DNA from: an uncultured Holophagae bacterium
GTDB taxonomy: Bacteria > Acidobacteriota > Thermoanaerobaculia > Thermoanaerobaculales > Sulfomarinibacteraceae
DNA length: 64,000 nt
Direction of reading: 5' to 3'
NCBI GenBank assembly: GCA_963797055.1
Contig: CAWCOD010000005.1
Span: 189,995-253,994 of the forward strand
The position numbers and the translations under genes were made by a program. The notes under the pieces were generated by a model that saw nothing but the letters and a program-made list of their open reading frames with translations, did no database searches and was not told the origin of the DNA. Shown here piece after piece: positions 5,828-59,200 of this stretch (position 1 is the stretch's first letter; each line of letters opens with the position of its first letter).

Positions 5828-8173
5828 ATGAGTATGGTGTCGAGGGCGACTTTCGCGCTGGTGGTTGGTGTCTTGTGGGCGGGTTTTGTCATGGCCCAGA
5901 CGCAGCCGCCGCCGTTTGGCGACCGGCGTGGCGGCGAGGAGGACCGGATCCGACAACGGATCGAGTGGTTCGTCCAAACAAGAGGACTCGATCGGGTGTC
6001 GAGGGCGGATCGATTGCGCAGCGAGGCTGTGCTTGCGGTCAAGGCGGTTCGAGACGCGGACTCCGGCCGACGGTCGCCACCATGGACACCGCTGGGCCCG
6101 AACTCGATGACCATGTTGGATTGGCGGATTGAGGACGTTTCGGGCCGGGTTTCAGCCTTGGCGGTCCATCCCGAAGATGAGGACATCATCTATCTTGGTT
6201 CGGCCTCCGGCGGGCTCTGGAAGACCATCGACGGTGGCGGCTCATGGTCGCCGATCTTTGACGACGTAGGAACGCTGACCATCGGCAGCGTGGTGATCGA
6301 TCCGTCCTCTCCGGACACGTTGTGGGTGGGCACCGGTGAGCAGGGGCAGAGCTGCTGGTCGTACTTCGGGATGGGGCTTTTCCGCTCCACCGACGGGGGC
6401 GAGTCGTTCGAACCGGTCAATGGATCGGATTCTCAAACCCTGGACCTGTCTTTCATTACCGGCATCGTCGTCCATCCCGATCGTCCCGGGAACATCGTCG
6501 TGGGGGGTGAGACCTGGTGCGATGACGGTGCCTTTCTCTACGGTGGGCTCTATCGGTCCACCGACGGGGGGACCTCGTGGCAGCGGGAGATTTCGGGCGC
6601 CGTCACCGACGTGATCATGGACCCCAGCAGGCCCGACACGCTCTACAGTGCGGTAGGTCGGTGGTCGAATAACGTCAACGGCGTCTACCGCAGTACCGAT
6701 GCGGGCGCGACGTGGACCAGACTCGAGGGCGGTCTGCCGTTCGGCGCTCAAGTGGGTCGGACCCGGCTCGCCATGGCGCCTAATGACAGCGCGACGATCT
6801 ACGCCTTGATGAACCACGAATCAGGGGTGGAGTTGTACCGTTCCACCGACGGTGGCGACACGTGGGTTCTCACCAACCCCGACGCCTGCGACGGTCAATG
6901 CTGGTACAACCTGTGCCTTGCGGTGCACCCGCTCGATGCCACGCGACTTCTGCTGGGCGCGGTCCGCTTCTACGCTTCCCTCAACGCCGGGACCACGCTT
7001 GCTCCGCTGATCGACTTCTGGGGCCCCGGTCAGACGGTCCACCAGGACATTCACGTGCTGGTCTATTCACGGTTGGATCCAAACCGGTTTTGGGTTGCGG
7101 GCGACGGCGGTATCTGGCGATCCGACGACGGTGGTGTCAATTTCGAAAACCTCAACGCAAACTTGAACCTCACCCAGTATTACGACATCGCGGTCCATCC
7201 TTCAGATGCTTCGACTGTCTTTGGTGGTTCGCAGGACAACTCCTCGTCGGCCACCATGGGCGATATCAAATGGGACGTCACAGTGGTCACCGGAGATGGG
7301 TTCATCAACGTGGTGGACTCCGAAGATCCGCAGATCGTTCTTCAAACCTCGTACCCGTACGAGGGGTACCCTTCGCTCTTCCAGTCCATTTCAGGGGGGA
7401 TCCCCAACAGCTTTCAGTGGTTGTGGCTCACCGGTGTCACGCAGTACGAACCGTGGCCGTGGGTGACGCCCCTTGCGTCGTTGGCTTCGGGGAGCGGCAA
7501 CAACCATCTGTTGCTCGGATCGGACCACGTCTATCGGTCATCCACCGCCCACCCCAGCCAATGGACAAAGGTCTCGGGTGATCTCACCGGAACCAACGGA
7601 AGCCTGAGCGTGCTGCTGCCGGTGGCCAACCAGGACACGGTCATGGTCTACGCAGGGACCGGAAACGGCAAGATCCACAGAACCGACGACGTCCTGGCGG
7701 CCGCCCCCGAATGGGTCGATGTGACGGGCAACTACCCCGGAGACACGGTCACCGACATCGCCGTGGATCCCCAAGATCCGCTCGTCGTGCTGGTCACCCG
7801 CGGCCAATTCGACGCCAGTCGTCTCTACCGGTCCTCAACCGGCGGCACCGCGTGGCAGGCGGTTGGCGCCGGGTTGCCAAACGTGCCTGCCAACACCGTG
7901 GTGGTGGATCCGACGGACGGACGCCGGGTATTTGTTGGGACCGACGTGGGTGTGTTTGTCAGCACGGACCGAGGATTGAGCTTTGAGCCGATTGTGGATG
8001 GCCTGCCCTTGGGTTTGGTTGTGACAGACTTGGAGGTGGACGGCGATCCCCACGTTTTGACGGCGGGAACCTATGGTCGCGGCGCGTGGCAGCTCGAGCT
8101 CCGACCAATCGATCTCTTGGACGACGGCTTCGAGTCGGGGGATCTCTCCGCCTGGACGACCAGCTATCCGTGA
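5828..8173 (+). CDS. Secreted BNR/Asp-box repeat beta-propeller protein (sortilin/Vps10/GH74-like)
   Basis: Signal peptide MSMVSRATFALVVGVLWAGFVMAQ. Eight Asp-box-like motifs: IDGGGSW, STDGGESF, STDGGTSW, STDAGATW, STDGGDTW, SDDGGVNF, SSTGGTAW, STDRGLSF. Confidence 0.85.
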   Translation: MSMVSRATFALVVGVLWAGFVMAQTQPPPFGDRRGGEEDRIRQRIEWFVQTRGLDRVSRADRLRSEAVLAVKAVRDADSGRRSPPWTPLGPNSMTMLDWRIEDVSGRVSALAVHPEDEDIIYLGSASGGLWKTIDGGGSWSPIFDDVGTLTIGSVVIDPSSPDTLWVGTGEQGQSCWSYFGMGLFRSTDGGESFEPVNGSDSQTLDLSFITGIVVHPDRPGNIVVGGETWCDDGAFLYGGLYRSTDGGTSWQREISGAVTDVIMDPSRPDTLYSAVGRWSNNVNGVYRSTDAGATWTRLEGGLPFGAQVGRTRLAMAPNDSATIYALMNHESGVELYRSTDGGDTWVLTNPDACDGQCWYNLCLAVHPLDATRLLLGAVRFYASLNAGTTLAPLIDFWGPGQTVHQDIHVLVYSRLDPNRFWVAGDGGIWRSDDGGVNFENLNANLNLTQYYDIAVHPSDASTVFGGSQDNSSSATMGDIKWDVTVVTGDGFINVVDSEDPQIVLQTSYPYEGYPSLFQSISGGIPNSFQWLWLTGVTQYEPWPWVTPLASLASGSGNNHLLLGSDHVYRSSTAHPSQWTKVSGDLTGTNGSLSVLLPVANQDTVMVYAGTGNGKIHRTDDVLAAAPEWVDVTGNYPGDTVTDIAVDPQDPLVVLVTRGQFDASRLYRSSTGGTAWQAVGAGLPNVPANTVVVDPTDGRRVFVGTDVGVFVSTDRGLSFEPIVDGLPLGLVVTDLEVDGDPHVLTAGTYGRGAWQLELRPIDLLDDGFESGDLSAWTTSYP

Positions 8174-11204: not shown

Positions 11205-11372
11205 ACCAGCGAGGTGAGAAGGTGAGAAGGTGAGAAGGAGAGGTGGGCGGGGGCTCCGACTTCGCGTTTCGCTACGCTGTGACACGTCTCCCATCTTGAA
11301 TCTTGCATCTTGCATCTTGCATCTTGGATCTTGGATCTCTGGATCTTAGATCGGGTGGGTGGGCGCCCGTTT
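11205..11372. repeat. Tandem arrays (ggtgagaa)x3 at 11212-11238 and (atcttgN)x8 at 11293-11350, each followed by a G-box
   Basis: Direct reading. G-boxes are ggtgggcggggg (11242-11253) and gggtgggtgggcg (11353-11365). The same unit types occur in opposite orientation at 562-890. Confidence 0.85.
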
Positions 11373-13455: not shown

Positions 13456-13645
13456 GTCGAAAGCCCAAAGTCGAAAGTTGAAAGTCCCCACCCTCCCGTT
13501 GCGAGGGGGCGCGAAAAGCGGGCGTGCCGTCTTCGGGCGCATTGCGAACGCGCTCACCCGGTGCCAGGCACCGTCGAAATCAAATCGTAGTACGAGGTCG
13601 ACACATCTGCAGCGGTGCCTGGCACCGACACGAATTTCGAATTGG
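13456..13645 (+). repeat. Intergenic composite: gtcgaaag units, GC 5' box, GGTGCCAGGCACC hairpin cassette (copy B1), heptamers
   Basis: GAACGCGCTCACCCGGTGCCAGGCACCGTCGAA (13546-13577) pairs with GCGGTGCCTGGCACCGACA (13612-13630). It is preceded by GGGGGCGCGAAAAGCGGGCGTGCC. Confidence 0.8.
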
Positions 13646-13649
13646 ACCG

Positions 13650-14036
13650 CTACCCGCCCTGACGCAACAGGAGGATCGGTCCCTCGCCGCGGAGGACAAA
13701 ATCGTCCATCGAGTCCAGCAGGGTGTCGAGCTCGATGCCGATGACCCGCCTCGGGTAGGGCGCCACCATCGTGCGTGTCTGTTGGGCGATCTGGCGAGCG
13801 CCGCGCACCTTGCGTGCCTGCCGGGCAACCACGGCAGTGACCGCGTTGGACAGTCCCTGATAGAGACGTTTGTGGGCATCGGTGGCTTCGAGCCACAAGT
13901 CCTCAGCCACCTCCTGTGCTTCGTCGTAACGGCCTTGGTTCAGCAACAGCTCGAGGCGGAGCAGCTGGCGGCGGTCATCTTCGGCAAGATGTCCGCGATC
14001 TTCGGGAATCGATGCCGGATCCATAATGGTCATCAT
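13650..14036 (-). CDS. DUF309 domain protein
   Basis: LLLNQGRYDEAQEVAEDLW...YQGLSNAVTAVVARQ matches the DUF309 helix pattern (FN.g.Y.eaHE.lE.lW ... GLIq.A). Confidence 0.65.
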   Translation of the reverse strand: MMTIMDPASIPEDRGHLAEDDRRQLLRLELLLNQGRYDEAQEVAEDLWLEATDAHKRLYQGLSNAVTAVVARQARKVRGARQIAQQTRTMVAPYPRRVIGIELDTLLDSMDDFVLRGEGPILLLRQGG

Positions 14037-23152: not shown

Positions 23153-23430
23153 CATTGCGAATTGCGAATTGCGAATTTCAGATTACAGATTGCAGATTGC
23201 AGATTCCGCCCGCCCACCCGGAGGGAGGAGGGTGCGTCTGGCGGGCGTGCGACTTTTGACATTGTTCGGATTCTCATCGCCGAAGGTACTGAGACAGGGG
23301 TCCGAACAATGTCAAGGGTGGCAACCTCGGGGAGCGCGTTAGGGAGAGGGCCACGCTGAAATCTACATGTCGAATCGAACGCGCTCACCCTGTGCCTGGC
23401 ACCCACATGGAATTTCGAATTCAAAATTCG
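23153..23430 (+). repeat. Composite intergenic element, copy A1: heptamer arrays + C-box + TTGACAxTGT hairpin element + half GGTGCC cassette + heptamers
   Basis: Heptamers 23153-23205; core 23206-23362 with stem ttgacattgttcgga (23256-23270) / tccgaacaatgtcaa (23301-23315); gaacgcgctcaccctgtgcctggcacc 23376-23403; ggaatttcgaattcaaaattcg. Confidence 0.85.
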
Positions 23431-24084: not shown

Positions 24085-25296
24085 TCAGTCTCCGGCGCCC
24101 GGTGGGAGCGCCACCTCGTCCCATGACTGAGTGTCGCTGGTGGACATGATCTCGGTGGCTTCCACCGCGCTGCGCACGAGGGCCTCCACATCCAGCGCCT
24201 GCTCGGCCCTCGCCAATTCGTCGGCCCTCGACTTCGTGGCCGGGTTGTCGGGCATCAGAAAGGAGCAGCAATCCTGGTGGGGTTCGATGGAGATGTCGAA
24301 GGTGCCAATAGCGCGAGCCCGCGAGATGATCTCCTGTTTGTCGAAGCCGATCAGTGGTCTCAGAACCGGCATGTCGGTCACCGCCTCCACAGCCGCCAGA
24401 TTTTCGATGGTCTGGGAGGCCACTTGACCAAGCGCCTCACCGGTCACCAGGGCGCGGCTGCCGAATCTACGGCTCAGAACCTCTGCGATGCGGAGCATGA
24501 AACGGCGGTAGAGGAGTACGCGGTACTCCTCCGGGCAACGCGCAACGATCAGCTCCTGAATGGACACCAACGGCACCGACGCGATTCGCGCGGAGTGCTG
24601 GTACCGATTGAGGATCCAGATCATCCGGTGGACCTTCTCGATGCTGGCCGGGTTGGTCCTCGGCACCGAATGGAAGTGGATGAAGTCGAGCCGCATTCCC
24701 CGTCTGAGCATGGCCCACGCGGCCACCGGTGAGTCGATACCGCCGGACAGCAGACTGGCGGCGCGACCGCCAACCCCCACCGGCAACCCACCGGGCCCCG
24801 GCACGCCACGGGTCCAGAGATAGAGCCCCCTGTCATCCACCAGGATGCTCACTGTTAGCCCCGGTCTGCGCAGATTCACCGGCCACCCGGTGCGCTGCTG
24901 GACAAAGGTGCCGATCTCGCGCTCGACCTCGGGTGACGTCAACGGGAATCGTTTGTTCGACCTGGTGCATCGGACCGCGAAGGTATCCGTTTCCAAAGAT
25001 TCGAGTCTGGGGCTCAGGGCCTTCTTGAGATCGTCAAGGGTGTGGCCGGTAAACTGGACAGGTCGAATGGACTTCAGTCCGAAAACAGTCACAAGCCGCC
25101 GAGCAGCGTCCTCGAAGATCACTTCTTCGGAAAAGGTAATCAGCACTCGCCAGGCCGGACGTTGGATCGCCTCGACCGGCAGATCGGCCAGTGCGGTCCG
25201 GATGTTGTCGGTGAGCTGCCGCTCGAACCACGGGCGGTTACCGCCCTTGAGGCTGATCTCGTTGGTACTGGCGAGGATCATGGTCACCCGGTCCAT
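24085..25296 (-). CDS. thiI: tRNA 4-thiouridine synthase ThiI
   Basis: NEISLKGGNR N-terminus, THUMP region, PP-loop SGGIDSPVAAW. I chose ATG 25296 because upstream ORF-track codons translate repeats (ICNLQSAICNL). Confidence 0.85.
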   Translation of the reverse strand: MDRVTMILASTNEISLKGGNRPWFERQLTDNIRTALADLPVEAIQRPAWRVLITFSEEVIFEDAARRLVTVFGLKSIRPVQFTGHTLDDLKKALSPRLESLETDTFAVRCTRSNKRFPLTSPEVEREIGTFVQQRTGWPVNLRRPGLTVSILVDDRGLYLWTRGVPGPGGLPVGVGGRAASLLSGGIDSPVAAWAMLRRGMRLDFIHFHSVPRTNPASIEKVHRMIWILNRYQHSARIASVPLVSIQELIVARCPEEYRVLLYRRFMLRIAEVLSRRFGSRALVTGEALGQVASQTIENLAAVEAVTDMPVLRPLIGFDKQEIISRARAIGTFDISIEPHQDCCSFLMPDNPATKSRADELARAEQALDVEALVRSAVEATEIMSTSDTQSWDEVALPPGAGD

Positions 25297-25328
25297 AGCC
25301 CCAGACTTTAACATTCGATGAGATCGTG

Positions 25329-25638
25329 GCAGATTGCAGATTGCAGATTGCAGATTGCAGATTCCCCCGCCCACCCGGAGGGAGGAAGGCGCGATGGGCG
25401 GGCGTGCCGTCTTTGACAATGTTGGAGGTTGAGAGTTACACGGTCGTAGAACGTCCCGACATTGTCAAAGGGGGCAACCTCGGGGAGCGCGTGGGGAGAG
25501 GGGCGCGACGAAATCGGCTGATCGTGCCAAAGATCTTCTGAAGAGCGGCCGCACCGCGGTCCCCGACCCGGGCAGGGTGGGGGACATTCAAATCTGCAAA
25601 TCTGAAAATTCAATAGCCGGGTGGGCTGGAGGGTAGGT
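25329..25638 (+). repeat. Composite intergenic element, copy A2, with inverted heptamer + C/G-box termini
   Basis: (gcagatt)x5 at 25329-25364; core 25366-25516 with stem tttgacaatgttgg (25412-25425) / ccgacattgtcaaa (25456-25469). The right end GGGTGGGGG + attcaaatctgcaaatctgaaaattc (25577-25614) mirrors the left end. Confidence 0.85.
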
Positions 25639-25639
25639 G

Positions 25640-26643
25640 TCAGGGTGAGATCCAGATCGGACGCGGCGAAAAGCTGAGCACGAAGATGACCAGTGCCAAC
25701 CAGCCGACCCATTTCCGCCGGTCATCCAGCGGGCGATGCTCGTCGAGCACCCTTGGATGACGGGGCCCGAGGACCATGATGATCACCGACCAGACCCACC
25801 AGCCCGGCCACAGGAATCCGAGGCGACCAGCGCCGCCACCAGTGGCCACGCCGCGATCTGGTGGAAACGTCCGAATAAAGCGTAGGTCACGTGACCCCCA
25901 TCGAGCTGAAAGAACGGGAGCATGTTCAGGGCCGTCACGAAGAGGCCGAACCAAGCCGCCCACGCCGTTGGGTGGAGCATGATGTCCTCACCGACGCCGA
26001 GTTCACCAAAAAACAGGACTCTGGCGACGAATCTGAAGAGGATCGGCTCGCCGAAATAGACCGCTGTGGAGTCGGGTACCGCCTGCACGCCGGAGGCGGC
26101 CACTCCGAGAACGAGGAATGGCAGCAGGGTGACGAAACCGGCAATCGGTCCCGACGCGCCAACATCCATCAGTTGACGGCGACTGCGGATGGGGTCCTTG
26201 ATGCGGATCACGGCGCCAAGAGTGCCCGGGCTGAAGAGCAGCGGAACCGGCATGGGTAGAAAGTAGGGAGGCGTGGCGCGAAGACCGTGCCGCCTGGCCG
26301 CGAAGTAGTGGCCGAGTTCGTGGGCGAGCAAGATCGTCATCAGGGGTAGGGAGAATTTGAGGCCTTCCACGACCAGTCGAGGATCGGTGACCCGATCCAA
26401 GAGATCGGGGCTCGGGAGCCAACCGTAGTAGAGACCACCGCAGAAGGTGGAGGATGCCAGGGTCAGCGCGAAAAGGAGCCCGTGCAGCCACCACCGGGGT
26501 GGACGGGGCGGCGGTGGTTCGTGGAGTTCGAATGGAAGGGGAATCTCGTCCGCCGTCCGAACCGTGGAATGTGGCGGACGAGAATTCGCCCCGGCGGGGT
26601 CACCGCCGGGGCGATTGGGTTGTGTGAGATTGTCGCGGTCCAC
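25640..26643 (-). CDS. Site-2 protease family (peptidase M50) membrane metalloprotease; frame break near 25830
   Basis: HELGH zinc motif and NMLPFFQLDGGH. ORF 25783..26643 ends ..AAWPLVAALVA, and the protein continues as LGFLWPGWWVWSVIIMVLG.. in ORF 25640..25963. The span of 1004 nt is not a multiple of 3. Confidence 0.75.
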
Positions 26644-27515: not shown

Positions 27516-27592
27516 ATTTCGAAAGTCGAATTCGAAGTACCCTACCCATCCGGAAGGCACCTCGCCCTTTTGCCCCAGATCGAGCGGGGACA

Positions 27593-27630
27593 ATCCGCAA
27601 TTCGCAATTCGCAATTCGCAATCCGTAATT
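27593..27630. repeat. Heptamer array (caattcg)x4
   Basis: ccgcaattcgcaattcgcaattcgcaatccgtaattc read directly. Confidence 0.85.
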
Positions 27631-27713
27631 CATAGTTGGCGGGAGCCGTATTGCCTCACGATCGCCATACGGCAGCCCTATCCGCCCGAAGTGCTGGTGG
27701 TACTCTTCGAGGG

Positions 27714-30123: not shown

Positions 30124-30311
30124 GAGGCGCCCATCTCCCCGAGGCGCTCTCCGAGGTTGCCGCCTTTGACAATGTTGGGACTTCTGAGGCCGAGTGAATC
30201 AGCTGAATGGACCCAACATTGTCAAAGACGGCACGCCCGCCATACCCGCCCACCGCGCTCCGGGTGGGCGGAGAAATCTGCAATCTGCAATTCGCAATTT
30301 GCAATTCGTAA
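30124..30311 (-). repeat. Composite intergenic element, copy A6 (reverse orientation) with heptamer array
   Basis: Stem tttgacaatgttggg (30166-30180) / cccaacattgtcaaa (30212-30226); GGGTGGGCGG 30262-30271; aaatctgcaatctgcaattcgcaatttgcaattcg 30273-30307. Confidence 0.85.
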
Positions 30312-44112: not shown

Positions 44113-45594
44113 TTAACGTGTTCGTTGTACCGCGGCGAGCATGGCCGCTTTGGGTGGCAGCCGGGTCGTGAAGGCCGCGAACTGGGCAAAGCCCTGGTGG
44201 GCCAGCATGCCGCGGCCGTCGACGAAAGTCACTCCCGCGTCCTGAGCCACCAACTCGAGCGGCGTCGGTTGATCGGCGTAGACCATGTCGACCACGGCGG
44301 CGGCGCGGGCCACCTCATCGGCCGGGAACGGACTCTCGCCGTCGGGGTCCGAGCCCAAGGGCGTGGCGTTGACCAGGATGGCATCTTCCGGGACCGGGCC
44401 GCAGCTGCGGGCCGGCTTGACGCCGATGGCCCCGGCCACCTTCGCGGTGTGGCCATCGTCACGACCGCGAATGGCGGCTTCGGCCCCGGCCAGGTGAAGC
44501 CCCACCGCTGCGGCACGGCCGGCGCCTCCCGTTCCCTGGACCACGGCTGCCCGGCCTTCTGGATCGACCCCCGCCGCCATTAATGAACTCACAACGCCAT
44601 CGGCGTCGGTGGTGTCAGCCGCCAACATAGAGGCGCGGAGCACCAGGGTGTTGGACGAACCGCAGCGCTCCACACGGGGCGCCCGGAGCGTGGCCGCGGC
44701 AGCAGCCGCATCCTTGTAGGGCGTGGTCACGGCCCATCCCGAAGCGGGCAATCCAACGCGGTCAAACAGGGTCTCACCGGCAGGTGCGAAGAGCAGAGGA
44801 AGTTCCTCGATGTCCGGCACACTCACCGGTATAAAGAGATAGGGGAGGTCCAGTTCGCGAAATCCGGCTGCGTGCATCACCGGGCTCAGGCTCGAGGTGA
44901 CGTCCCGGCCCACGATGCCGAAAAGGCGCTGCGGAGGGGCTTCGAGGTGACCGGCGATGGCCGTCATCCTGGCAAGCGGCATTTGGCCCGGGGCCGCCGC
45001 GGCATTCTCGCGCCAGGCCGCGAAGGTGATGGGCGAGCCGAGCAACGGCCCGATGATCCTGGTGGGCATGCCCACGACGCCCATGGCGAAGGCGATGATC
45101 CTGCGCCTGTTCCTGCCGGCGGCTGGGAAGAGACTGAGCACGGCCTCCACGTCGGCCAGACGGTTGGCGGTGGGGACGATCTTGAGGTGGCCTGCGGAGC
45201 TGGCCGCCATGGCCGTCGCCAGCTCGAGAAGATCGTGCGGCGTCCCCGCGGGATCGTGCCACGACATCACCATCTGCTCCGGGGCGATGCCGAGTCGCTG
45301 TGCAGCCTCCCGGTCGCGGGCAAATTCCACGTCGATCAGCGCCGCGCCGGAGTCTCGTGCCGAGGCGAGAATGGCGGCCCGTGTTTCTGGATCCACTGCC
45401 CCCGATCCGCCCTCGGTCTCCGACCTGTAGGTGATCAGCACCGGCAGCGGGCAGGCTGCCACAGCCGTCCGGAGATCCAGATCGGGCAGGAGGTCGGCCC
45501 GGATCTCCACAACGGACGCCCCCTCCGGCGGACTGGCAAGGGCAGCGAGCGGATCGTCGGCCACCTCGGGTGTCAGGGTCACGATGGGTTCCAT
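44113..45594 (-). CDS. Bifunctional 3-dehydroquinate dehydratase (type I) / shikimate dehydrogenase
   Basis: N-terminal AroD-like region (VVEIRADLL..., LIDVE). C-terminal AroE-like region (LFGIVGRDVTSSLSPVMHAAGF, TTPYKDAA, VQGTGGAGRAAA Rossmann). Confidence 0.8.
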   Translation of the reverse strand: MEPIVTLTPEVADDPLAALASPPEGASVVEIRADLLPDLDLRTAVAACPLPVLITYRSETEGGSGAVDPETRAAILASARDSGAALIDVEFARDREAAQRLGIAPEQMVMSWHDPAGTPHDLLELATAMAASSAGHLKIVPTANRLADVEAVLSLFPAAGRNRRRIIAFAMGVVGMPTRIIGPLLGSPITFAAWRENAAAAPGQMPLARMTAIAGHLEAPPQRLFGIVGRDVTSSLSPVMHAAGFRELDLPYLFIPVSVPDIEELPLLFAPAGETLFDRVGLPASGWAVTTPYKDAAAAAATLRAPRVERCGSSNTLVLRASMLAADTTDADGVVSSLMAAGVDPEGRAAVVQGTGGAGRAAAVGLHLAGAEAAIRGRDDGHTAKVAGAIGVKPARSCGPVPEDAILVNATPLGSDPDGESPFPADEVARAAAVVDMVYADQPTPLELVAQDAGVTFVDGRGMLAHQGFAQFAAFTTRLPPKAAMLAAVQRTR

Positions 45595-45610
45595 GGGCGC
45601 AGAGTAGCAG

Positions 45611-45687
45611 CCCCCACCCGTTCATTACGAATTACGAATTGCGAATTTTTACGAATTGCGGACTTTGGGTTGCAGATTGCAGATTGT
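45611..45687. repeat. C-box plus heptamer arrays (attacga / gcgaatt / gcagatt)
   Basis: cccccaccc; cattacgaattacgaattgcgaatttttacgaattgcg...ttgcagattgcagattg. Confidence 0.85.
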
Positions 45688-45739
45688 CGCCACCGAGGAC
45701 TTTGATATCGAAAGTTGAAACGGGGTGCTTGGGCGGGGC

Positions 45740-45768
45740 AAAAAAATTGGCTCCGGGGCAGGAGCCAA
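45740..45768 (-). terminator. Candidate rho-independent terminator (minus strand)
   Basis: The minus strand reads TTGGCTCC-tgcccc-GGAGCCAA followed by TTTTTTT. The A-runs on both sides could make it bidirectional. Confidence 0.4.
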
Positions 45769-45873
45769 AAAAGGAGGAGTGTGATGAAGGTCGTTGTTGA
45801 TGGTCCGGCGTTGACGCCGGTACTCGTGCCTTCAAGGGTGTATACGGTTGCAGGGGCGGATTGGTTACAGAAC

Positions 45874-46185
45874 AGGGTATGGAAGGTATGGCAAGTGTGG
45901 AGGGTGTGGAAATTGTCAAAGATGAACGTTGAACGTTACACGTTAAACGTTTGCCCCCCCCCAAAAAAAACACCTCAACCGAAGCAAGGGGGCGGGATGG
46001 GCGGGCGTGCCGTCCTCACGCGCTCCGAGAACGCGCTCACCCGGTGCCAGGCACCGTCGAACTCGCATCGGAGTACGAGATCTATACATCTGCGGCGGTG
46101 CCTGGCACCGACATGGAGATCGGAATACGAGGGTGGCTCCCTCGGGGAGCGCGGTTGGGAGATAGGCGCGTCGAAATCAGCGAAT
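45874..46185 (+). repeat. Composite: ggtatgga/gtgtgga units, ACGTT array, C9A8 tract, and GGTGCCAGGCACC cassette (copy B2) between the same 5' and 3' boxes as the A elements
   Basis: acgttgaacgttacacgttaaacgtt at 45926-45951. 5' box ggcgggatgggcgggcgtgcc; arms ccggtgccaggcaccgtcgaa (46041-46061) / gcggtgcctggcaccgaca (46096-46114); 3' box ggtggctccctcggggagcgcggttgggagataggcgcg. Confidence 0.8.
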
Positions 46186-46256
46186 CGAAGCGCGGCCACG
46201 GGCTGCATGGGCTGGGATCCTTGAGGTTGATCCTCCAGTGTTTCCTGACACCAGTT

Positions 46257-46505
46257 TCAGCGGTCCGGGGCCCGGCTCCGGACTCGAACGCTTTTGATGA
46301 GCGCCACCGACATCACCACCGAAGCGATGCCCAACGCGATGGTGACCACCACGCGGTATGTGGGCGCTGGGGTCGTCAGAACCAGCCGGAGGTACTCGAC
46401 AAAAAGACCGCAGGCAAGGGCGGTGACGACCCATTGTGGCCACAACGGTACGCCCAAAAGACTCCATCTGCCCATCTTTGACCCCCAGGAGAACGGCTCC
46501 AGCAT
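46257..46505 (-). CDS. Small hypothetical membrane protein (two predicted TM helices)
   Basis: WPQWVVTALACGLFVEYLRLVL and YRVVVTIALGIASVVMSVALI. No family I recognise, so coding status is uncertain. ATG 46475 is possible. Confidence 0.35.
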   Translation of the reverse strand: MLEPFSWGSKMGRWSLLGVPLWPQWVVTALACGLFVEYLRLVLTTPAPTYRVVVTIALGIASVVMSVALIKSVRVRSRAPDR

Positions 46506-46657
46506 TTCATCGAGTTACGTGGGACGCGACCGAGGGGTTGCATCGCGCCGGTCCCTTTCAACCCCGTAACTTGAAACTTCCAAACCTGAACCATCCGCTC
46601 GGGCACGGAGACGGAGACGGGCGTGGAGACGGGTTCAGGTTCCGCGAACTGAGGGTC

Positions 46658-47842
46658 TCAATCTGTTGGGGGTGGCTCGAACGCCGGAATCCCAGTCAAA
46701 TAGTGGCCCAGCACCAGGGTGTGGATGTCGTGCGTTCCCTCGTAGGTGACGACGGTTTCCAGGTTCATGAGGTGCCGCATGATGGGGTACTCGTTGACGA
46801 TGCCGTTGGCGCCGTGAATCTCGCGCGCGGTCCTGGCGCACTCGCGGGCGACCCAGACGTTGTTGCGTTTGGCCAGCGAGACCGCCTCGTGGCCGGCCCG
46901 GCCGCCTTCCTTGAGACGGCCGAGTTGGAGCACCAGCAGCTGGCCCTTGACGATCTCGGAGTACATGTCGGCCAGCTTCTGCTGTTGGATCTGGTGGGCC
47001 GCGATGGGTTGCCCCGAAAACTGGATCCGGCTGGTGGCGTAGTCCAGCGCCGCGGAGAAGGTGGCCATGGCTGAACCGAGGGCGCCCCAGGCGATGCCGT
47101 AGCGGGCCTGGTTGAGGCACATGAGTGCGTTCTTGAGCCCGGTGGTGCCGGGAAGAACGTTCTCCGCCGGGATCCGGCAGTCCTCAAAGACCAGTTGCGA
47201 GGTGACCGAGGCCCGCAGCGAGTACTTGCCCTTGTGCTCCACGGTAGAGAAGCCGGGGCGGCCGGCCTCCACGAGAAAGCCGCGGATCCCGTCGGGAGTT
47301 CTGGCCCACACCACCGCCACATCGGCGATGGAGCCGTTGGTGATCCACGCCTTCTCGCCGTTGAGCAGCCATCCGTCGCCATCGGGTTCGGCGCGGGTCC
47401 GCATGCCGCCCGGGTTGGAGCCGAAGTCGGGTTCGGTGAGCCCGAAGCAGCCCACCGCCTCACCGCCGGCCAGGGCCGGGATCCAGCGATCCCGTTGTGC
47501 GTCGCTGCCCCACTGGAGGATTGGGAACATCACCAGACTGGTCTGTACCGAGACAAAGGACCGAAGGGCCGAGTCGCCGCGCTCGAGTTCCTGGTTGATC
47601 AGGCCGTAAGCGACGGGCCCCAGCCCCGGCAGGTCATAGGCATCGTACGGCGCGCCGAGAAGGTCGAGTGAGGCCATCTCGGACACCAATTCCCGGGGGA
47701 AGACACAGTCCCAGGCCCACTGTTCGATGTGCGGCAGAATGCGCTGCTCGACCCAATTTCGGACCGCGTCGCGGACCCGGCGTTCGTCTTCGGTCAGCAG
47801 ATCGTCAACGTGGTACAGATCGAAGTTGTCATAGCGTCGCAT
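46658..47842 (-). CDS. gcdH: Acyl-CoA dehydrogenase, glutaryl-CoA dehydrogenase-like
   Basis: GCFGLTEPDFGSNPGGMRTRA, WITNGSIADVAVVWA, YEGTHDIHTLVLG. ATG 47842 follows GAGGGAGAG. Confidence 0.85.
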   Translation of the reverse strand: MRRYDNFDLYHVDDLLTEDERRVRDAVRNWVEQRILPHIEQWAWDCVFPRELVSEMASLDLLGAPYDAYDLPGLGPVAYGLINQELERGDSALRSFVSVQTSLVMFPILQWGSDAQRDRWIPALAGGEAVGCFGLTEPDFGSNPGGMRTRAEPDGDGWLLNGEKAWITNGSIADVAVVWARTPDGIRGFLVEAGRPGFSTVEHKGKYSLRASVTSQLVFEDCRIPAENVLPGTTGLKNALMCLNQARYGIAWGALGSAMATFSAALDYATSRIQFSGQPIAAHQIQQQKLADMYSEIVKGQLLVLQLGRLKEGGRAGHEAVSLAKRNNVWVARECARTAREIHGANGIVNEYPIMRHLMNLETVVTYEGTHDIHTLVLGHYLTGIPAFEPPPTD

Positions 47843-50420: not shown

Positions 50421-50592
50421 GTGGTTGAATTCGGAATTTGAAGACCCCGCCCACCCGGAGCGTGAGGGCGCGATAGGCGGGTGTGCCACTTTTGACATTG
50501 TTCGGGTCCTCATCGCTGAAAAATCTGAGACTGGGGTCCGAACAATGTCAAGGGTGGCAACCTCGGGAAGCGCGTGGGGAAAATCGGCGCGA
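50421..50592 (+). repeat. Composite intergenic element, copy A3
   Basis: gttgaattcggaatttgaaga; core 50446-50592 with stem ttgacattgttcggg (50492-50506) / ccgaacaatgtcaa (50538-50551). Confidence 0.85.
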
Positions 50593-56394: not shown

Positions 56395-56440
56395 GGCCGA
56401 ATGATATTCGAATGAACATCCTAAAGTCCACCGATTGAGT

Positions 56441-56615
56441 GAGAAAATTCGAAAATCGAAATTTGAAATTCGAATGCCCGTTTTGGCCAAGGTTGTTTCA
56501 GCGCGCCCTTCTCCTCACCGCGCTACCCGAGGTTGCCCCTTGACAATGTCGGGACTCCAAGAGCCGGGCGACTCAGCCGTAGAGCCCCAACATTGTCAAA
56601 GAGGGCACGCCCGAT
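56441..56615 (-). repeat. Heptamer array plus composite element copy A7 (reverse orientation, lacks the C-box end)
   Basis: gagaaaattcgaaaatcgaaatttgaaattcgaat at 56441-56475. Stem ttgacaatgtcggg (56540-56553) / ccccaacattgtcaaa (56585-56600). Confidence 0.8.
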
Positions 56616-56671
56616 CATCGCGGCCAAACGCTCTGGATCGTTGGGGGCAATAACCCGATGGCCCCTAGGCC

Positions 56672-57871
56672 CTAGCTCCATCCGACGGGCTTCAGCGCCA
56701 GAGCATCGGCGTGGCGTGCGAGCGCTGTTCGTGCGGCCTCTCTGGTGGTCGGCGTGTCGGGTTCTTCTATGTGGAGGGACAGCACGTGGAGCCGTCCGGC
56801 CGCTCGGTCGGCCTTGAGGTCGAATCGGGCCACAAACTGATCGCCGGCGAGCACCGGCAGGCAGTAATAGCCGTAGATCCGTTGCTCAGCGGGTTTGAAG
56901 ATCTCCAGAACCTGGTGGAATCCGAACAGGGCTTCGACCCTCTGGCGGTCCCACAGGAGCGGGATCGAAGGGTGACAGCAGGATCCCCCGATCGCGCCGG
57001 GGACGGACGCGTTCCAGACGATCTGCCAGTTCCAGATCCTCGCCGCGAATCCAGCCGAGATGTTCCCGCCGTCCTCCGGCACCACCTTGCACTTCCGGAT
57101 GCGGCCCGACGCCTCCAGGGTCGCGAGCGCGTTTTTGATCTGCCCCTGACGCCGAGCTAGGCGCCAGGTTTGGGTCAGGGTGCCGGTGGTGGCCCATCCG
57201 TGGCCCTCGAGGGCCAATATCAGCAGGTTTTTGATGGCCTCCGACTCGGGCACCGGGTCGGAGCGCCAGCGCTCTGGAATCACCCGATCGGCGAGGTCGT
57301 AGGATCTCTGGAAGGAGCGGCGCTCTCGGATGGCGAGCTCGCCGGAGGACCACAGTGCGGTGGCGACCTTTTTTGCAACCTTGAGGTCCCACCAGCCTTG
57401 GCTCCCGCTCCCCTCCATGTCCACCGACCGCAGCGGCCCCTCGTCCCGGATACGCTTCACAAGCCTGTCCGCCACGCCTGGGTTCCGCCCGACGATGTCT
57501 CCCCACCATGGGTGGTGCCGAAACTCCCGCCTGCGAAAGTCAAAGATCGGGTAGAGATCCATGGGCAGCCAGCTCGCCTCGTGGCCCCAGTACTCGAAGA
57601 GCGGTTCGCCGGGACGGAGCAGCTCCTCGCCGAGTGCGGGGTCCATCCCGTCGATGCGCGACATCAGGACGATGGCGTGGCTGCGGGCCCCGGCCACCGA
57701 TACGGTGTCGAGCTGGAGGTAGCCGAAGCGTTCAATGACCCTCTGGGCCGCCGTTCTGGCGCGGGCGCCGCGACCGGCGGCCCTGACGGGCATCCCGGTC
57801 CACTCGGGTTTGAGCAGACCGCCCCGCGCCAGCGCCAGTCGCCGCGCCGCCCTGACCGACAGGGTGTCCAT
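56672..57871 (-). CDS. Winged-helix DNA glycosylase-like protein (YcaQ/AlkZ, DUF1006 family) with an out-of-frame internal segment
   Basis: FGYLQLDTVSVAGARSHAIVLMSR, LLWDRQRVEALFGF..IFKPAEQRIYGYYCLPVL..RFDLKADR. The conserved HLGWIRGEDLE..GILLSPFDP segment is readable only in the frame of ORF 56886..57509, between about 57060 and 56959. Confidence 0.75.
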   Translation of the reverse strand: MDTLSVRAARRLALARGGLLKPEWTGMPVRAAGRGARARTAAQRVIERFGYLQLDTVSVAGARSHAIVLMSRIDGMDPALGEELLRPGEPLFEYWGHEASWLPMDLYPIFDFRRREFRHHPWWGDIVGRNPGVADRLVKRIRDEGPLRSVDMEGSGSQGWWDLKVAKKVATALWSSGELAIRERRSFQRSYDLADRVIPERWRSDPVPESEAIKNLLILALEGHGWATTGTLTQTWRLARRQGQIKNALATLEASGRIRKCKVVPEDGGNISAGFAARIWNWQIVWNASVPGAIGGSCCHPSIPLLWDRQRVEALFGFHQVLEIFKPAEQRIYGYYCLPVLAGDQFVARFDLKADRAAGRLHVLSLHIEEPDTPTTREAARTALARHADALALKPVGWS

Positions 57872-57914: not shown

Positions 57915-58258
57915 CCCCGCCCACCCATTACGAATTACGAATTACGAATTGCAGATTGCAGATTGCAGGTTGCAGATTCCCGCCCACCGGAGCGAGGTTG
58001 CGGGCGTGCAGAATTCGCGAGGATGTGCGAGATGCAGAGTCCTCCGCCCACCCGGAGAGAGGAGGGCGCGTCTGGCGGGCGTGCCACTTTTGACATTGTT
58101 CGGAGGTTTCGATGCAGCCGAAGGTACCCGAGGACAGGGAGTCCGAACAATGTCGAAGGGTGTGGCAACCTCGGGTCGGCGCGTTAGGGAGAGTGGCCAG
58201 CGCTGAAATCTACGATGTCGGATCGAACGCGCTCACCCGGTGCCAGGCACCGACATGG
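57915..58258 (+). repeat. Composite intergenic element, copy A4: C-box, heptamers, solo 5' box, full core, half GGTGCC cassette
   Basis: ccccgcccaccc; (attacga)/(gcagatt) arrays 57927-57979; solo box cccgcccaccggagcgaggttgcgggcgtgc 57979-58009; core 58043-58210 with stem ttgacattgttcgga / tccgaacaatgtcgaa; gaacgcgctcacccggtgccaggcaccgaca 58225-58254. Confidence 0.85.
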
Positions 58259-58788: not shown

Positions 58789-59200
58789 GAATTGAAAATG
58801 TGAAATGAGAAATGAGAAATGAAGGAAGTGAAAATTCGAACACCCCCACCCGCCCGGAGCGTGAGGGCGCGATAGGCGGGCGTGCCACTTCTGACACTTT
58901 CGGGAGGATGGGCGGCGATGCCGTCGGTGCCGTCCGGTCCCGAATAGTGTCAGGGGTGGCAACCACGGGGAGCGCGGTCGGGAGAGGGGCGCGCGGAATC
59001 GACAGATCGAATCGAACGACAGGACCCCCGTGGATCGGCCGTCCCGGCTGCAATCTCCGAGTTGTTGGATCCCACGATTGCAGGCGGGACGCCTGCTCCA
59101 CAATGCAGGCCCCAGGCTGCGCTACAACGCCGTGCCGGGCGGGTGGGCGGAACGTTTAACGTTCAACGTTCAACGTTTACACCCTCCACACCTTCCACAC
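58789..59200 (+). repeat. Composite intergenic region: gaaatga units, element copy A5, G-box, ACGTT array, ccacac units
   Basis: gaaaatgtgaaatgagaaatgagaaatgaagg; core 58843-59000 with stem ctgacactttcggga (58891-58905) / tcccgaatagtgtcag (58938-58953); gggcgggtgggcgg 59137-59150; aacgtttaacgttcaacgttcaacgttt 59151-59178. Confidence 0.8.

Follow-up and report, generated by a model that had tools for sequence, protein, structure and literature searches.

A probable REPIN-type hairpin cassette in a composite, modular intergenic repeat of an uncultured Holophagae bacterium

Several intergenic elements in the 64-kb stretch of Holophagae DNA analysed here (the whole of which we call the window) place a TTGACA-type hairpin between a conserved 5′ box and a conserved 3′ box. 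At 45988-46185 that hairpin is replaced by a two-arm cassette, as the first-pass annotation had pointed out, and the question is what kind of element this is and whether one hairpin has actually been exchanged for another. We conclude that the stretch is probably one copy of a composite, non-coding, modular and mobile hairpin-forming repeat of the REP/BIME type, of which the cassette would be the REPIN-type unit. The whole element measures about 200 bases and is intergenic, and its body between the two boxes is a hairpin made from two 13-base palindromes.

The features of the element and of its relatives in the window are collected in Table 1. Arm 1 reads CGGTGCCAGGCACCG-TCGAA and contains the palindrome GGTGCCAGGCACC, while arm 2 reads CGGTGCCTGGCACCG and contains GGTGCCTGGCACC. 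The palindromes start 54 nt apart in both full cassettes of the window (46043/46097 and 13560/13614), and the distance between GTCGAA and GCGGTGCC is 32 nt, not the roughly 35 nt first given. ACGCGCTC occurs twice in the left linker; both copies are complementary to GAGCGCG and GGCGCG of the 3′ box and pair with them in the minimum-energy fold. To the right of the cassette, ACATGGAGATCG is the commonest flank, with 23 occurrences.

Table 1. Coordinates of the element at 46 kb and of related copies in the window (L-numbers are locus handles).
Feature	Position	Strand	Remarks
Period-7 tandem array (AACGTTn)	45925..45951	+	Directly 5′ of the element; Tandem Repeats Finder and sequence
C9A8 homopolymer run	45954-45970		After the AACGTTn array; sequence
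5′ box GGCGGGATGGGCGGGCGTGCC ('head')	45991..46011	+	Common to TTGACA-type elements; kept at orthologous locus L024
Left linker GTCCTCACGCGCTCCGAGAACGCGCTCACC, 30 nt	46012..46041	+	Also in other box-plus-cassette copies L019, L009, L007, L004, L012
Arm 1, REP unit CGGTGCC-A-GGCACCG + GTCGAA	46042..46061	+	13-nt palindrome 46043-46055; invariant in 22 copies
Spacer (loop) of the doublet	46062..46095	+	Less conserved than the arms
Arm 2, REP unit CGGTGCC-T-GGCACCG	46096..46110	+	13-nt palindrome 46097-46109; exact reverse complement of arm 1
Right linker ACATGGAGATCGGAATACGAG, 21 nt	46111..46131	+	Belongs to the 120-nt body 95% identical to L019
3′ box GGTGGCTCCCTCGGGGAGCGCGGTTGGGAGATAGGCGCG ('tail')	46132..46170	+	Common to TTGACA-type elements
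Second copy, upstream part	13456..13528	+	Heptamer array GTCGAAA/GTTGAAA 13456-13486, then 'pre' motif and weak 5′ box CCCCACCCTCCCGTTGCGAGGGGGCGCGAAAAGCGGGCGTGCC
Second copy, cassette part	13529..13635	+	Left linker, arm 1 13559-13573, spacer, arm 2 13613-13627
Collapsed cassette GAACGCGCTCACCC + TGTGCCTGGCACC + CACATGG	23377..23410	+	3′ of a type-A element; palindrome 23391-23403
Collapsed cassette GAACGCGCTCACCC + GGTGCCAGGCACC + GACATGG	58225..58258	+	3′ of a type-A element; palindrome 58239-58251
Reference type-A element: pre + 5′ box + TTTGACAATGT hairpin + 3′ box	25367..25510	+	Same head and tail
Further type-A copies	23210-23350; 30126-30272; 50447-50590; 56519-56630; 58044-58200		30126-30272 on minus strand; 56519-56630 on minus strand, partial
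A′ variant	58846-58994

The Holophagae DNA has a G+C content of 63%, and the boxes are G-rich and of low complexity, so that boxes and arms might be suspected of being chance resemblances in G+C-rich intergenic DNA. The counts refute this reading, to which we give practically no credence. With at most one mismatch, the arm pattern GGTGCCWGGCACC is matched six times in the window against 0.16 expected, none of 100 shuffles reaching six, and all six matches lie at the 46-kb and 13-kb cassettes and at the single-arm sites 23391 and 58239. The 5′ box has four further matches with at most three mismatches (25388, 30230 on the minus strand, 50467 and 58866), giving five occurrences against none in shuffles. 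The proposal that both boxes match those of the other elements therefore stands for the 5′ box; for the 3′ box the match is approximate and not exact, since no other copy in the window lies within three mismatches and positions 46130-46192 are 75% identical to the element tail at 23315-23377, with the core CTCGGGGAGCGCG..GGGAGA.GGCGCG common to both. The order of the modules is constant in the window and in dozens of fetched loci: a heptamer array, a 'pre' motif (CCCGCCCACCCGGAG..GGCGCG), the 5′ box, a body, the 3′ box and often a further cassette. This argues against boxes that are just generic GC-rich sequence. The exact 20-mer arm CGGTGCCAGGCACCGTCGAA occurs with conserved surroundings at no fewer than 120 loci in JGI metagenomes (at least 120), and among the matches listed the boxes are also present at 106 of them.

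A scan with GCGCTCACCCNGTGCCWGGCACC of one genome per species returned 23 loci, 21 of which belong to one uncultured Holophagae MAG (MFD09964.bin.1.27, CAVQBD01) that contains at least 22 full cassette copies. In three of these 21 loci the gene order is that of the window, with 80-94% nucleotide identity, from which we take the window to represent a sister species of this MAG, referred to below as the sister genome; the identity between the two genomes is put at about 80-90%. By codon-usage gene calls every copy in the window and the sister genome is intergenic, and three sister-genome loci (L002, L013 and L016) have identical cores. Searches of phage contigs gave no match to the arm, and the palindrome was not found in bacterial papers in the literature searched.

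The second full cassette of the window, which had been described at 13487-13632 with a 5′ box only, is indeed 82% identical to the first over 144 nt (13496-13639 versus 45979-46122). Its palindromes are GGTGCCAGGCACC at 13560-13572 and GGTGCCTGGCACC at 13614-13626, its 5′ box is weaker (GCGAAAAGCGGGCGTGCC) and no 3′ box follows. The single arms reported to follow the 3′ boxes near 23376-23403 and 58225-58254 were likewise found there (Table 1). In both, the left flank is that of arm 1 (GAACGCGCTCACCC) and the right flank that of arm 2 (GACATGG or CACATGG), which identifies them as cassettes lacking one arm and the spacer, exactly 54 nt. One single arm retains an A centre and the other a T centre, which is what deletion between two near-identical 13-nt repeats would give. 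The single arms would then be immobile remnants of such a 54-nt deletion between the arms. The collapsed form at 23377..23410 is identical at the orthologous site L003 of the sister genome, so this collapse predates the split of the two species; the form at 58225..58258 is identical at the orthologous site L017.

Aligned with each other, the 22 copies that the window and the sister genome provide have invariant arms and a variable spacer. The swap of the central A and T between the arms, which the first reading had noticed, is kept in 20 of these 22 copies. In a larger collection of 138 cassettes with 105 different cores, 132 have an arm-to-arm length of 69 nt. Spacer variation falls in about eight columns (core positions 25-27, 30, 33, 39 and 43-44), and mutual information among the spacer columns of the 105 distinct copies marks subfamilies, without Watson–Crick covariation. 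None of the 20 predicted pairs shows a double change in the 22 copies and no compensatory change appears in the 105 distinct copies; the invariant arms are uninformative either way on whether base pairing is maintained.

Folding of the variants, which the first-pass annotation had proposed as a check, gave a hairpin of 16-19 bp for the cassette as single-stranded DNA on either strand, with −24 to −26 kcal/mol and z-scores of −4.0 to −4.8. The single arms fold no better than shuffles (z +0.9 for 23377..23410 and z 0 for 58225..58258). Folded as RNA, the whole 211-nt element reaches −105 kcal/mol on its G-rich strand versus −85 kcal/mol on the complement, with a fold z-score of −4.65, and the type-A elements likewise fold better on the G-rich strand. 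The better fold of this strand is due to several stem positions that are G-T or G-U on it.

Such a strong fold, made consistently more stable on one strand by G-U and G-T pairs, might be expected of a structured cis-acting RNA, that is a terminator, an mRNA-stabilising 3′ UTR hairpin or a small RNA, the different bodies being alternative functional domains. The arrangement of neighbouring genes is in line with this to the extent that orientation is not random. Codon-usage gene calls around 33 elements gave 16 tandem-anti, 4 tandem-co, 10 convergent and 3 divergent contexts, and in 26 of the 33 the 3′ end of the element abuts the stop codon of an opposite-strand gene. The 16:4 ratio of tandem-anti to tandem-co corresponds to a binomial p of ~0.01 by hand arithmetic, with some of the loci being orthologous pairs. 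However, as the elements are mostly antisense to their neighbours, the better-folding G-rich strand is in most cases opposite to the mRNA. The cassette itself has no strand preference in folding, its arms are conserved as sequence with no compensatory change in the 22 or the 105 distinct copies, and presence, absence and body type vary at orthologous loci of close relatives, unlike a conserved regulator. Rfam 15 gave no match at gathering scores in the whole window, and an E-value search of 45550-46700 (E up to 5) returned weak matches only, with E of at least 0.03 and all far below gathering scores; a known RNA family was rejected on this basis. We therefore consider a cis-acting RNA unlikely. 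The orientation bias itself could result from counter-selection of very stable transcript hairpins or from use of the C-rich complement downstream of genes. An orientation tied to replication was also considered and rejected, since masked GC skew agrees in only ~10 of 18 classifiable loci. One neighbour recurs beside the copies, a 135-aa protein which we take to be a four-helix-bundle (23S IVS-like) protein.

The first-pass annotation had further suggested that alternative hairpins are exchanged within one fixed scaffold. Comparison of orthologous loci bears out the exchange. Locus L024 is the sister-genome ortholog of the acd/82-aa ORF/aroDE spacer that holds the 46-kb element in the window. 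The left flanks of the two, including the 5′ box, are 87% identical, and the AACGTTn array is also there, with a C14A9 run; the right flanks are 92% identical over the 3′ box and 130 nt beyond. Between these flanks L024 carries a 67-nt hairpin of the CTGACAC type (A′) versus the 120-nt cassette body (B) of the window, with 39% identity between the bodies, while the body of the window is 95% identical to a sister-genome copy at a different locus, L019. Over the entire 190-nt unit of box, B body and box, identity to a non-orthologous copy reaches 93.7%. In a third relative (L025) the acd/aroDE locus is occupied by a type-A element in the opposite orientation, and two further orthologous spacers differ between both species in module content or orientation. 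Exchange of cassettes within a common scaffold is thus real and directly shown.

The 5′ box precedes at least four alternative bodies. It can be followed by the TTGACAwTGT hairpin (A), the CTGACAC hairpin (A′), the cassette and the linkers flanking it (B), or a palindromic element of ~150 nt by which the 3′ box is split (C); in other copies a heptamer array comes next, and then a further head. The last bases of the 5′ box are paired with the first bases of the 3′ box in A and A′. The two boxes would accordingly act as a head and a tail common to bodies A, A′, B and C, and since dozens of dispersed copies have the same boxes, one body can replace another at a given locus. We suggest that this occurs by ectopic homologous recombination or gene conversion ending in the boxes, or by enzyme-mediated cut-and-paste. 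The swap at the acd/aroDE locus begins and ends within the common boxes, as would be expected if gene conversion had taken place between dispersed copies. An enzyme-mediated route may also be involved. The swapped segment includes the 30-nt and 21-nt linkers beyond the REPIN core, so that the swap may owe nothing to a transposase.

The scaffold is less fixed than had been thought. In a census limited to full cassettes flanked by 60 nt or more, 117 in number, we found 52 after a 5′ box, 39 after the 3′ box of a preceding element and 26 after neither. No 3′ box follows in 84 of the 117, and in only 16 is a preceding 5′ box combined with a 3′ box further on, be it intact, partial or split by C; these counts are biased towards B because the loci were fetched by the cassette itself. 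Combinations of box and cassette hence recur outside the window, but enclosure by both boxes is the exception. On these counts the 46-kb copy of the window represents the rarer 'complete' form and the 13-kb copy the commonest one. The latter lies in the Nramp/DUF309 spacer, which measures only 37 nt in one relative (L028) and contains only heptamers and a reversed 'pre' motif in the sister genome (L027), with neither head nor cassette. Absence from the orthologous spacers of two relatives marks head and cassette at this locus as an insertion.

How might the cassette have moved? A tblastn search with E. coli RAYT and IS200 queries, taken solely as a pointer, led to two non-Holophagae loci (L070 and L015) that had originally been fetched solely because they contain the palindrome, and the matches were confirmed by Pfam and NCBIfam. 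L070 encodes a 191-aa protein that scores 92 bits against NCBIfam NF047646 'REP-associated tyrosine transposase' (cut-off 80) and also matches Pfam Y1_Tnp. Its gene is flanked upstream by AGTGCCTGGCACC-GAC-GGTGCCAGGCACC-GTCGAA and across the stop codon by GGTGCCTGGCACC-GTT-GGTGCCAGGCAC, so the 20-mer adjoining this RAYT gene is the same as arm 1. In L015, from a Thermoleophilia MAG, the last codons of a RAYT-like gene are formed by the same palindrome as the arms; its product scores 76.9 bits, just below the NF047646 cut-off and above that of Pfam Y1_Tnp. A RAYT 74% identical to that of L070 was retrieved by protein similarity alone (L149/L150), and it has doublets of the same palindromes, GTGCCTGGCAC and GTGCCAGGCAC, on both sides. 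Finally, a 52%-identical RAYT (L151) is flanked by five doublets GGTGTCTGACACC-AAAA-GGTGTCAGACACC (GGTGTC-W-GACACC), whose two differences from the arm palindrome are symmetric, so that a 6-1-6 palindrome is maintained. The arm palindrome therefore flanks RAYT genes in three unrelated contigs and a related palindrome does so at a fourth. The contigs concerned have 67-70% G+C; one is from Thermoleophilia and none from Holophagae.

Since the same palindrome flanks RAYT genes elsewhere, the cassette is best read as a REPIN-type doublet: two inverted REPs of 15-20 nt (CGGTGCC-W-GGCACCG + GTCGAA) whose starts are separated by 54 nt, with a less conserved spacer between them. In single-stranded DNA the pair is predicted to form a hairpin of 18 bp. 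The arms would most likely be the recognition hairpins of a RAYT, a Y1/HUH tyrosine transposase, and this enzyme would copy or move the doublet via single-stranded DNA. Several observations speak against this explanation. Neither the 64-kb window nor ~230 kb of the sister genome nor ~500 kb of Holophagae-type metagenome contigs yielded a RAYT or Y1 gene, a word-based protein search gave no hit on a contig as long as that of the window or as any of the sister MAG, and the RAYT genes that the palindrome flanks lie on contigs of 67-70% G+C outside Holophagae. Next to those genes the units form tight doublets, ordered T-then-A with 3-4 nt between them, whereas the cassette has A-then-T units 54 nt apart, and the GTAG tag is absent. 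The G-rich strand moreover folds better than its complement. The antisense bias also hints at selection at the level of the transcript, which lies outside the model.

Inverted ends of 15-20 bp around a variable middle, a length of ~75-90 nt and dispersal in intergenic DNA are also what one would see in a conventional MITE mobilised by a DDE transposase through recognition of 20-bp terminal inverted repeats, and a few metagenome matches indeed combine the same ends with unrelated middles (L039, L135, L114 and L055). However, no target-site duplication could be discerned, either by comparing the occupied with the empty site or in 138 copies; to its left the cassette has GCGCTCACC or GCGCGGGC, and to its right ACATGG. 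As in REPs, each of the two ends forms a palindrome by itself, and no enzyme genes other than those for RAYTs were found between such ends. A transposase encoded beside the copies had been a candidate in its own right and was rejected, as none recurred in an all-against-all BLAST of the ORFs neighbouring ~140 copies. A DDE-type MITE thus appears very improbable.

Perfect palindromes of invariant sequence at a fixed spacing of 54 bp, or about five helical turns, might instead be operators for a dimeric protein such as a transcription factor, a nucleoid protein or gyrase, the repeat spreading through its use by the host. The gene contexts given above, with 10 convergent, 16 tandem-anti, 4 tandem-co and only 3 divergent cases, show no tie to promoters, and GGTGCC, GGCACC and CCWGG are neither avoided nor enriched elsewhere in the Holophagae DNA analysed. 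Operators of a host protein would also fail to account for the same palindromes bracketing RAYT genes in unrelated bacteria, and the two-position symmetric variant at a related RAYT fits enzyme-substrate co-evolution. This leaves operators quite improbable. Two further candidates were dismissed separately. A sigma-54 or sigma-70 promoter inside the arms was considered as TGGCAC is present, but TTGC is absent at the right distance and a promoter scan returned no site. The arms also contain GGYRCC and CCWGG, yet these potential restriction or methylation motifs occur in 250 kb at about the expected counts.

The REPIN-type reading can be set against known systems. REPINs were defined in Pseudomonas fluorescens SBW25 as REP doublets that form hairpins and are associated with RAYT transposases (PMC3116915). 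The cassette resembles them in having two inverted, highly conserved short REPs around a less conserved spacer, in its fixed spacing (54 bp, against 71 bp between the 16-mers of the SBW25 GI group), in forming a doublet hairpin in single-stranded DNA or RNA, and in its extragenic position, many copies and singlet remnants (PMC3116915). The same REP also flanks RAYT genes, here in other organisms (L070, L149/L150 and L015). It differs in that no RAYT was found in the Holophagae DNA examined (the window and ~730 kb more), and in that its units are perfect 6-1-6 palindromes with CGTC/GTCG at the 3′ foot in place of a GTAG by either arm. Moreover, the units beside the RAYT genes are 3-4 nt apart instead of 54 nt, and the cassette doublet is usually welded to a 5′ or a 3′ box and seldom alone.

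The first-pass annotation had judged the swapping of cassettes to be untypical of REPs. This view does not hold, as the cassette is itself a REP doublet whose palindrome flanks RAYT genes, and REPs or similar repeats mixed with other fixed motifs are known from the bacterial interspersed mosaic elements (BIMEs) of E. coli (PMC2817692, PMC3333891) and from streptococcal BOX elements (PMC3049150). BIMEs likewise combine palindromic units with other conserved motifs in a set order within intergenic DNA and have a connection to a RAYT/Y1 enzyme (PMC2817692, PMC3333891). Their sequences are unrelated to those described here, so that the likeness is functional and architectural only. BIMEs also alternate REP orientation along an array, whereas the Holophagae elements run in one orientation from head to body to tail and often on to a cassette; here any one of several long hairpin bodies is framed by a head (pre and 5′ box) and a tail (3′ box), and each head has a heptamer array before it.

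BOX elements of Streptococcus pneumoniae and S. suis have the structure boxA-boxB(n)-boxC, and boxE and boxF flanks are found around the same boxB (PMC3049150). They resemble the present elements in being built from modules, of which the terminal ones pair with each other and the inner one may be missing, repeated or exchanged, with variation between strains and insertion of other repeats into the elements (PMC3049150). In contrast, BOX has inverted-repeat ends, target-site duplications and AT-rich hosts (PMC3049150), and its inner module varies in number, while here it varies in kind, one kind being a RAYT-type REP doublet. A CGTC-tagged REP super-family with 8-9-bp stems, 4-5-nt loops, a CCA tail and no associated transposase has also been described (PMC3733652). 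CGTC is present at the 3′ foot of arm 1 in every copy (GGCAC-CGTC-GAA), and as in that super-family the units occur as inverted dimers (PMC3733652); in the present case, by contrast, CGTC extends into the paired region of a 6-1-6 palindrome, and RAYT genes accompany the unit. With DDE-type MITEs the cassette shares the inverted ends, and a target-site duplication was not seen.

The finding would represent a new kind of biology only if the exchange were site-specific or the family had crossed phyla. A bolder version of the REPIN-type reading includes both: one REP, identical over 20 nt, would serve RAYT/REPIN systems in Actinobacteriota (Thermoleophilia-like contigs with the RAYT gene) and in Acidobacteriota (Holophagae, with hundreds of doublets), where it would be an interchangeable 'plug' with the boxes as dedicated exchange sites. 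We regard this as speculative and on balance rather doubtful. In later work by the authors who defined REPINs, REPIN-RAYT systems are reportedly regarded as essentially vertically inherited. If the cross-phylum part were true, it would mean horizontal spread of a REPIN population; if the plug part were true, non-coding hairpins would be swapped in a site-specific and not merely homologous manner, by a mechanism that perhaps also lays the heptamer arrays before every head.

For genome annotation, the repeat explains 'empty' intergenic stretches of ~200-600 nt and the spurious ORFs called across them, such as a 169-aa ORF at 45715-46224. With the cassette, a REPIN-like family would be added to a phylum, and within it to an uncultured lineage, for which the literature searched yielded no description of one. 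It would also connect a particular clade of RAYTs with a perfect 6-1-6 palindrome of unusual form, a two-position symmetric version of which accompanies a related clade. Above all, the acd/aroDE locus provides a clean natural case in which the body of a repeat has been replaced within the same orthologous scaffold, and this bears on how mosaic repeats such as BIMEs assemble and reshuffle.

In two pairs of orthologous intergenic regions, the composites of the window species and of its sister species are unlike each other: a reversed A element in the window corresponds to 5' box, C, 3' box and cassette at the sister-genome locus L017, and a simple A element to a 600-nt chain at locus L010. The latter chain runs in the order head, partial A, heptamers, head, A', 3' box, cassette and C. 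L004 and L007, two separate sites on one contig, have in common a run of modules over 250 nt long (5' box, GTCGAAA heptamers, pre, 5' box, cassette), whereas neither the upstream DNA nor the cassette spacer is alike. This common run suggests that composites are copied or converted in whole blocks.

The fourth module, C, is rich in 6-1-6 palindromes of its own (CTGCCG-G-CGGCAG and GGTGAC..GTCACC) and interrupts the 3' box, with GGCAACCT on one side and CGGGGAGCGCG on the other. AACCT is found at both of its sides, and the CGAGTAACCT variant present in some 3' boxes looks like a footprint. Starts of module C also occur at L012, L021 and many metagenome loci; the window itself contains no copy.

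A RAYT of another bacterium (L151) is 52% identical to the L070 enzyme, the 191-aa RAYT flanked by the cassette palindrome, and has four GGTGTCTGACACC-AAAA-GGTGTCAGACACC doublets upstream and one downstream. The palindrome of these doublets differs from that of the cassette by a symmetric pair of substitutions, C to T and G to A, and it thus seems that enzyme and REP vary together.

Nearly all intergenic regions of the 64-kb window carry a period-7 tandem array (~35 arrays), usually directly 5' of the 'pre' motif CCCGCCCACCCGGAG. The unit varies by locus (ATTGCAG, ATTGCGA, ATTACGA, AACGTTn, GTCGAAA, TTCGAAA, CATCTTG, TGCTCCC), and at one orthologous locus it reads GCAGATT in the window and GTGAAAT in L010. 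At the locus examined in a more distant relative (L026), heptamer arrays are present while the box scaffold is absent. The arrays are reminiscent of the cyanobacterial STRR repeats and of the Beggiatoa TAACTGA repeats. Other short arrays include two with a period of 8, whose units are near reverse complements of one another. The homopolymer pair is C9A8 in the window and C14A9 at the orthologous site in the sister genome (L024), so its length differs between species.

Upstream of the repeat in the acd/aroDE spacer, a non-coding stretch is kept in four genomes; the identity of their aroDE proteins to that of the window is only 63-78%. No reading frame of the stretch survives its 1-3-nt indels, even though the plus strand has AAGGAGG...ATG. 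Read on the minus strand, a UGAAGG/CCUUCA stem around CCGGCG-UCAA-CGCCGG is followed by single-stranded CACACUCCUCCUUUUUU and then by a hairpin that is rich in G+C and carries a U7 tail. We consider this strand a candidate for an unannotated small RNA with an anti-Shine–Dalgarno-like stretch; the stretch has no Rfam match, and covariation is absent among the four sequences compared.

Positions of repeat modules, arrays and neighbouring features (window positions unless a locus is named)
Feature	Position	Remark
Reversed A element / 5' box - C - 3' box - cassette	56401-56700 / L017:931-1400	orthologous pair
Simple A element / 600-nt chain	25271-25660 / L010:1101-1850	orthologous pair
Common multi-module block	L004 ~7750-7990; L007 ~1800-2070	
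Module C	L010:1570-1740; L017:1056-1200	~150 nt
GGTGTCTGACACC-AAAA-GGTGTCAGACACC doublets	L151:1258-1470; 1955-1985	flank RAYT
Period-7 arrays (examples)	23154-23205; 25329-25363; 27591-27631; 45624-45686; 45925-45951; 57927-57978; 59151-59177	
(GGTATGGAA)x4 array	45876-45911	
Period-8 arrays CTCACCTT and AGGTGAGA	850-888 and 11212-11242	
C9A8 homopolymer pair	45954-45970	between heptamer array and 5' box
Conserved non-coding stretch	45738-45862	minus strand
Duplicated 135-aa ORF	L016:2790-3197; L019:131-538	adjoins elements at both loci
Long spurious ORFs across repeats	45715-46224; 45951-46481	plus strand
Long spurious ORF across repeats	13478-13744	

The two copies of the duplicated 135-aa ORF are 93% identical, and its product appears to be a four-helix-bundle protein of the 23S rRNA intervening-sequence type. 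Some long ORFs in the window cross the repeats and are spurious. Since the cassette palindrome itself can be translated (VPGT / CQAP), gene callers may annotate hypothetical proteins at such places.
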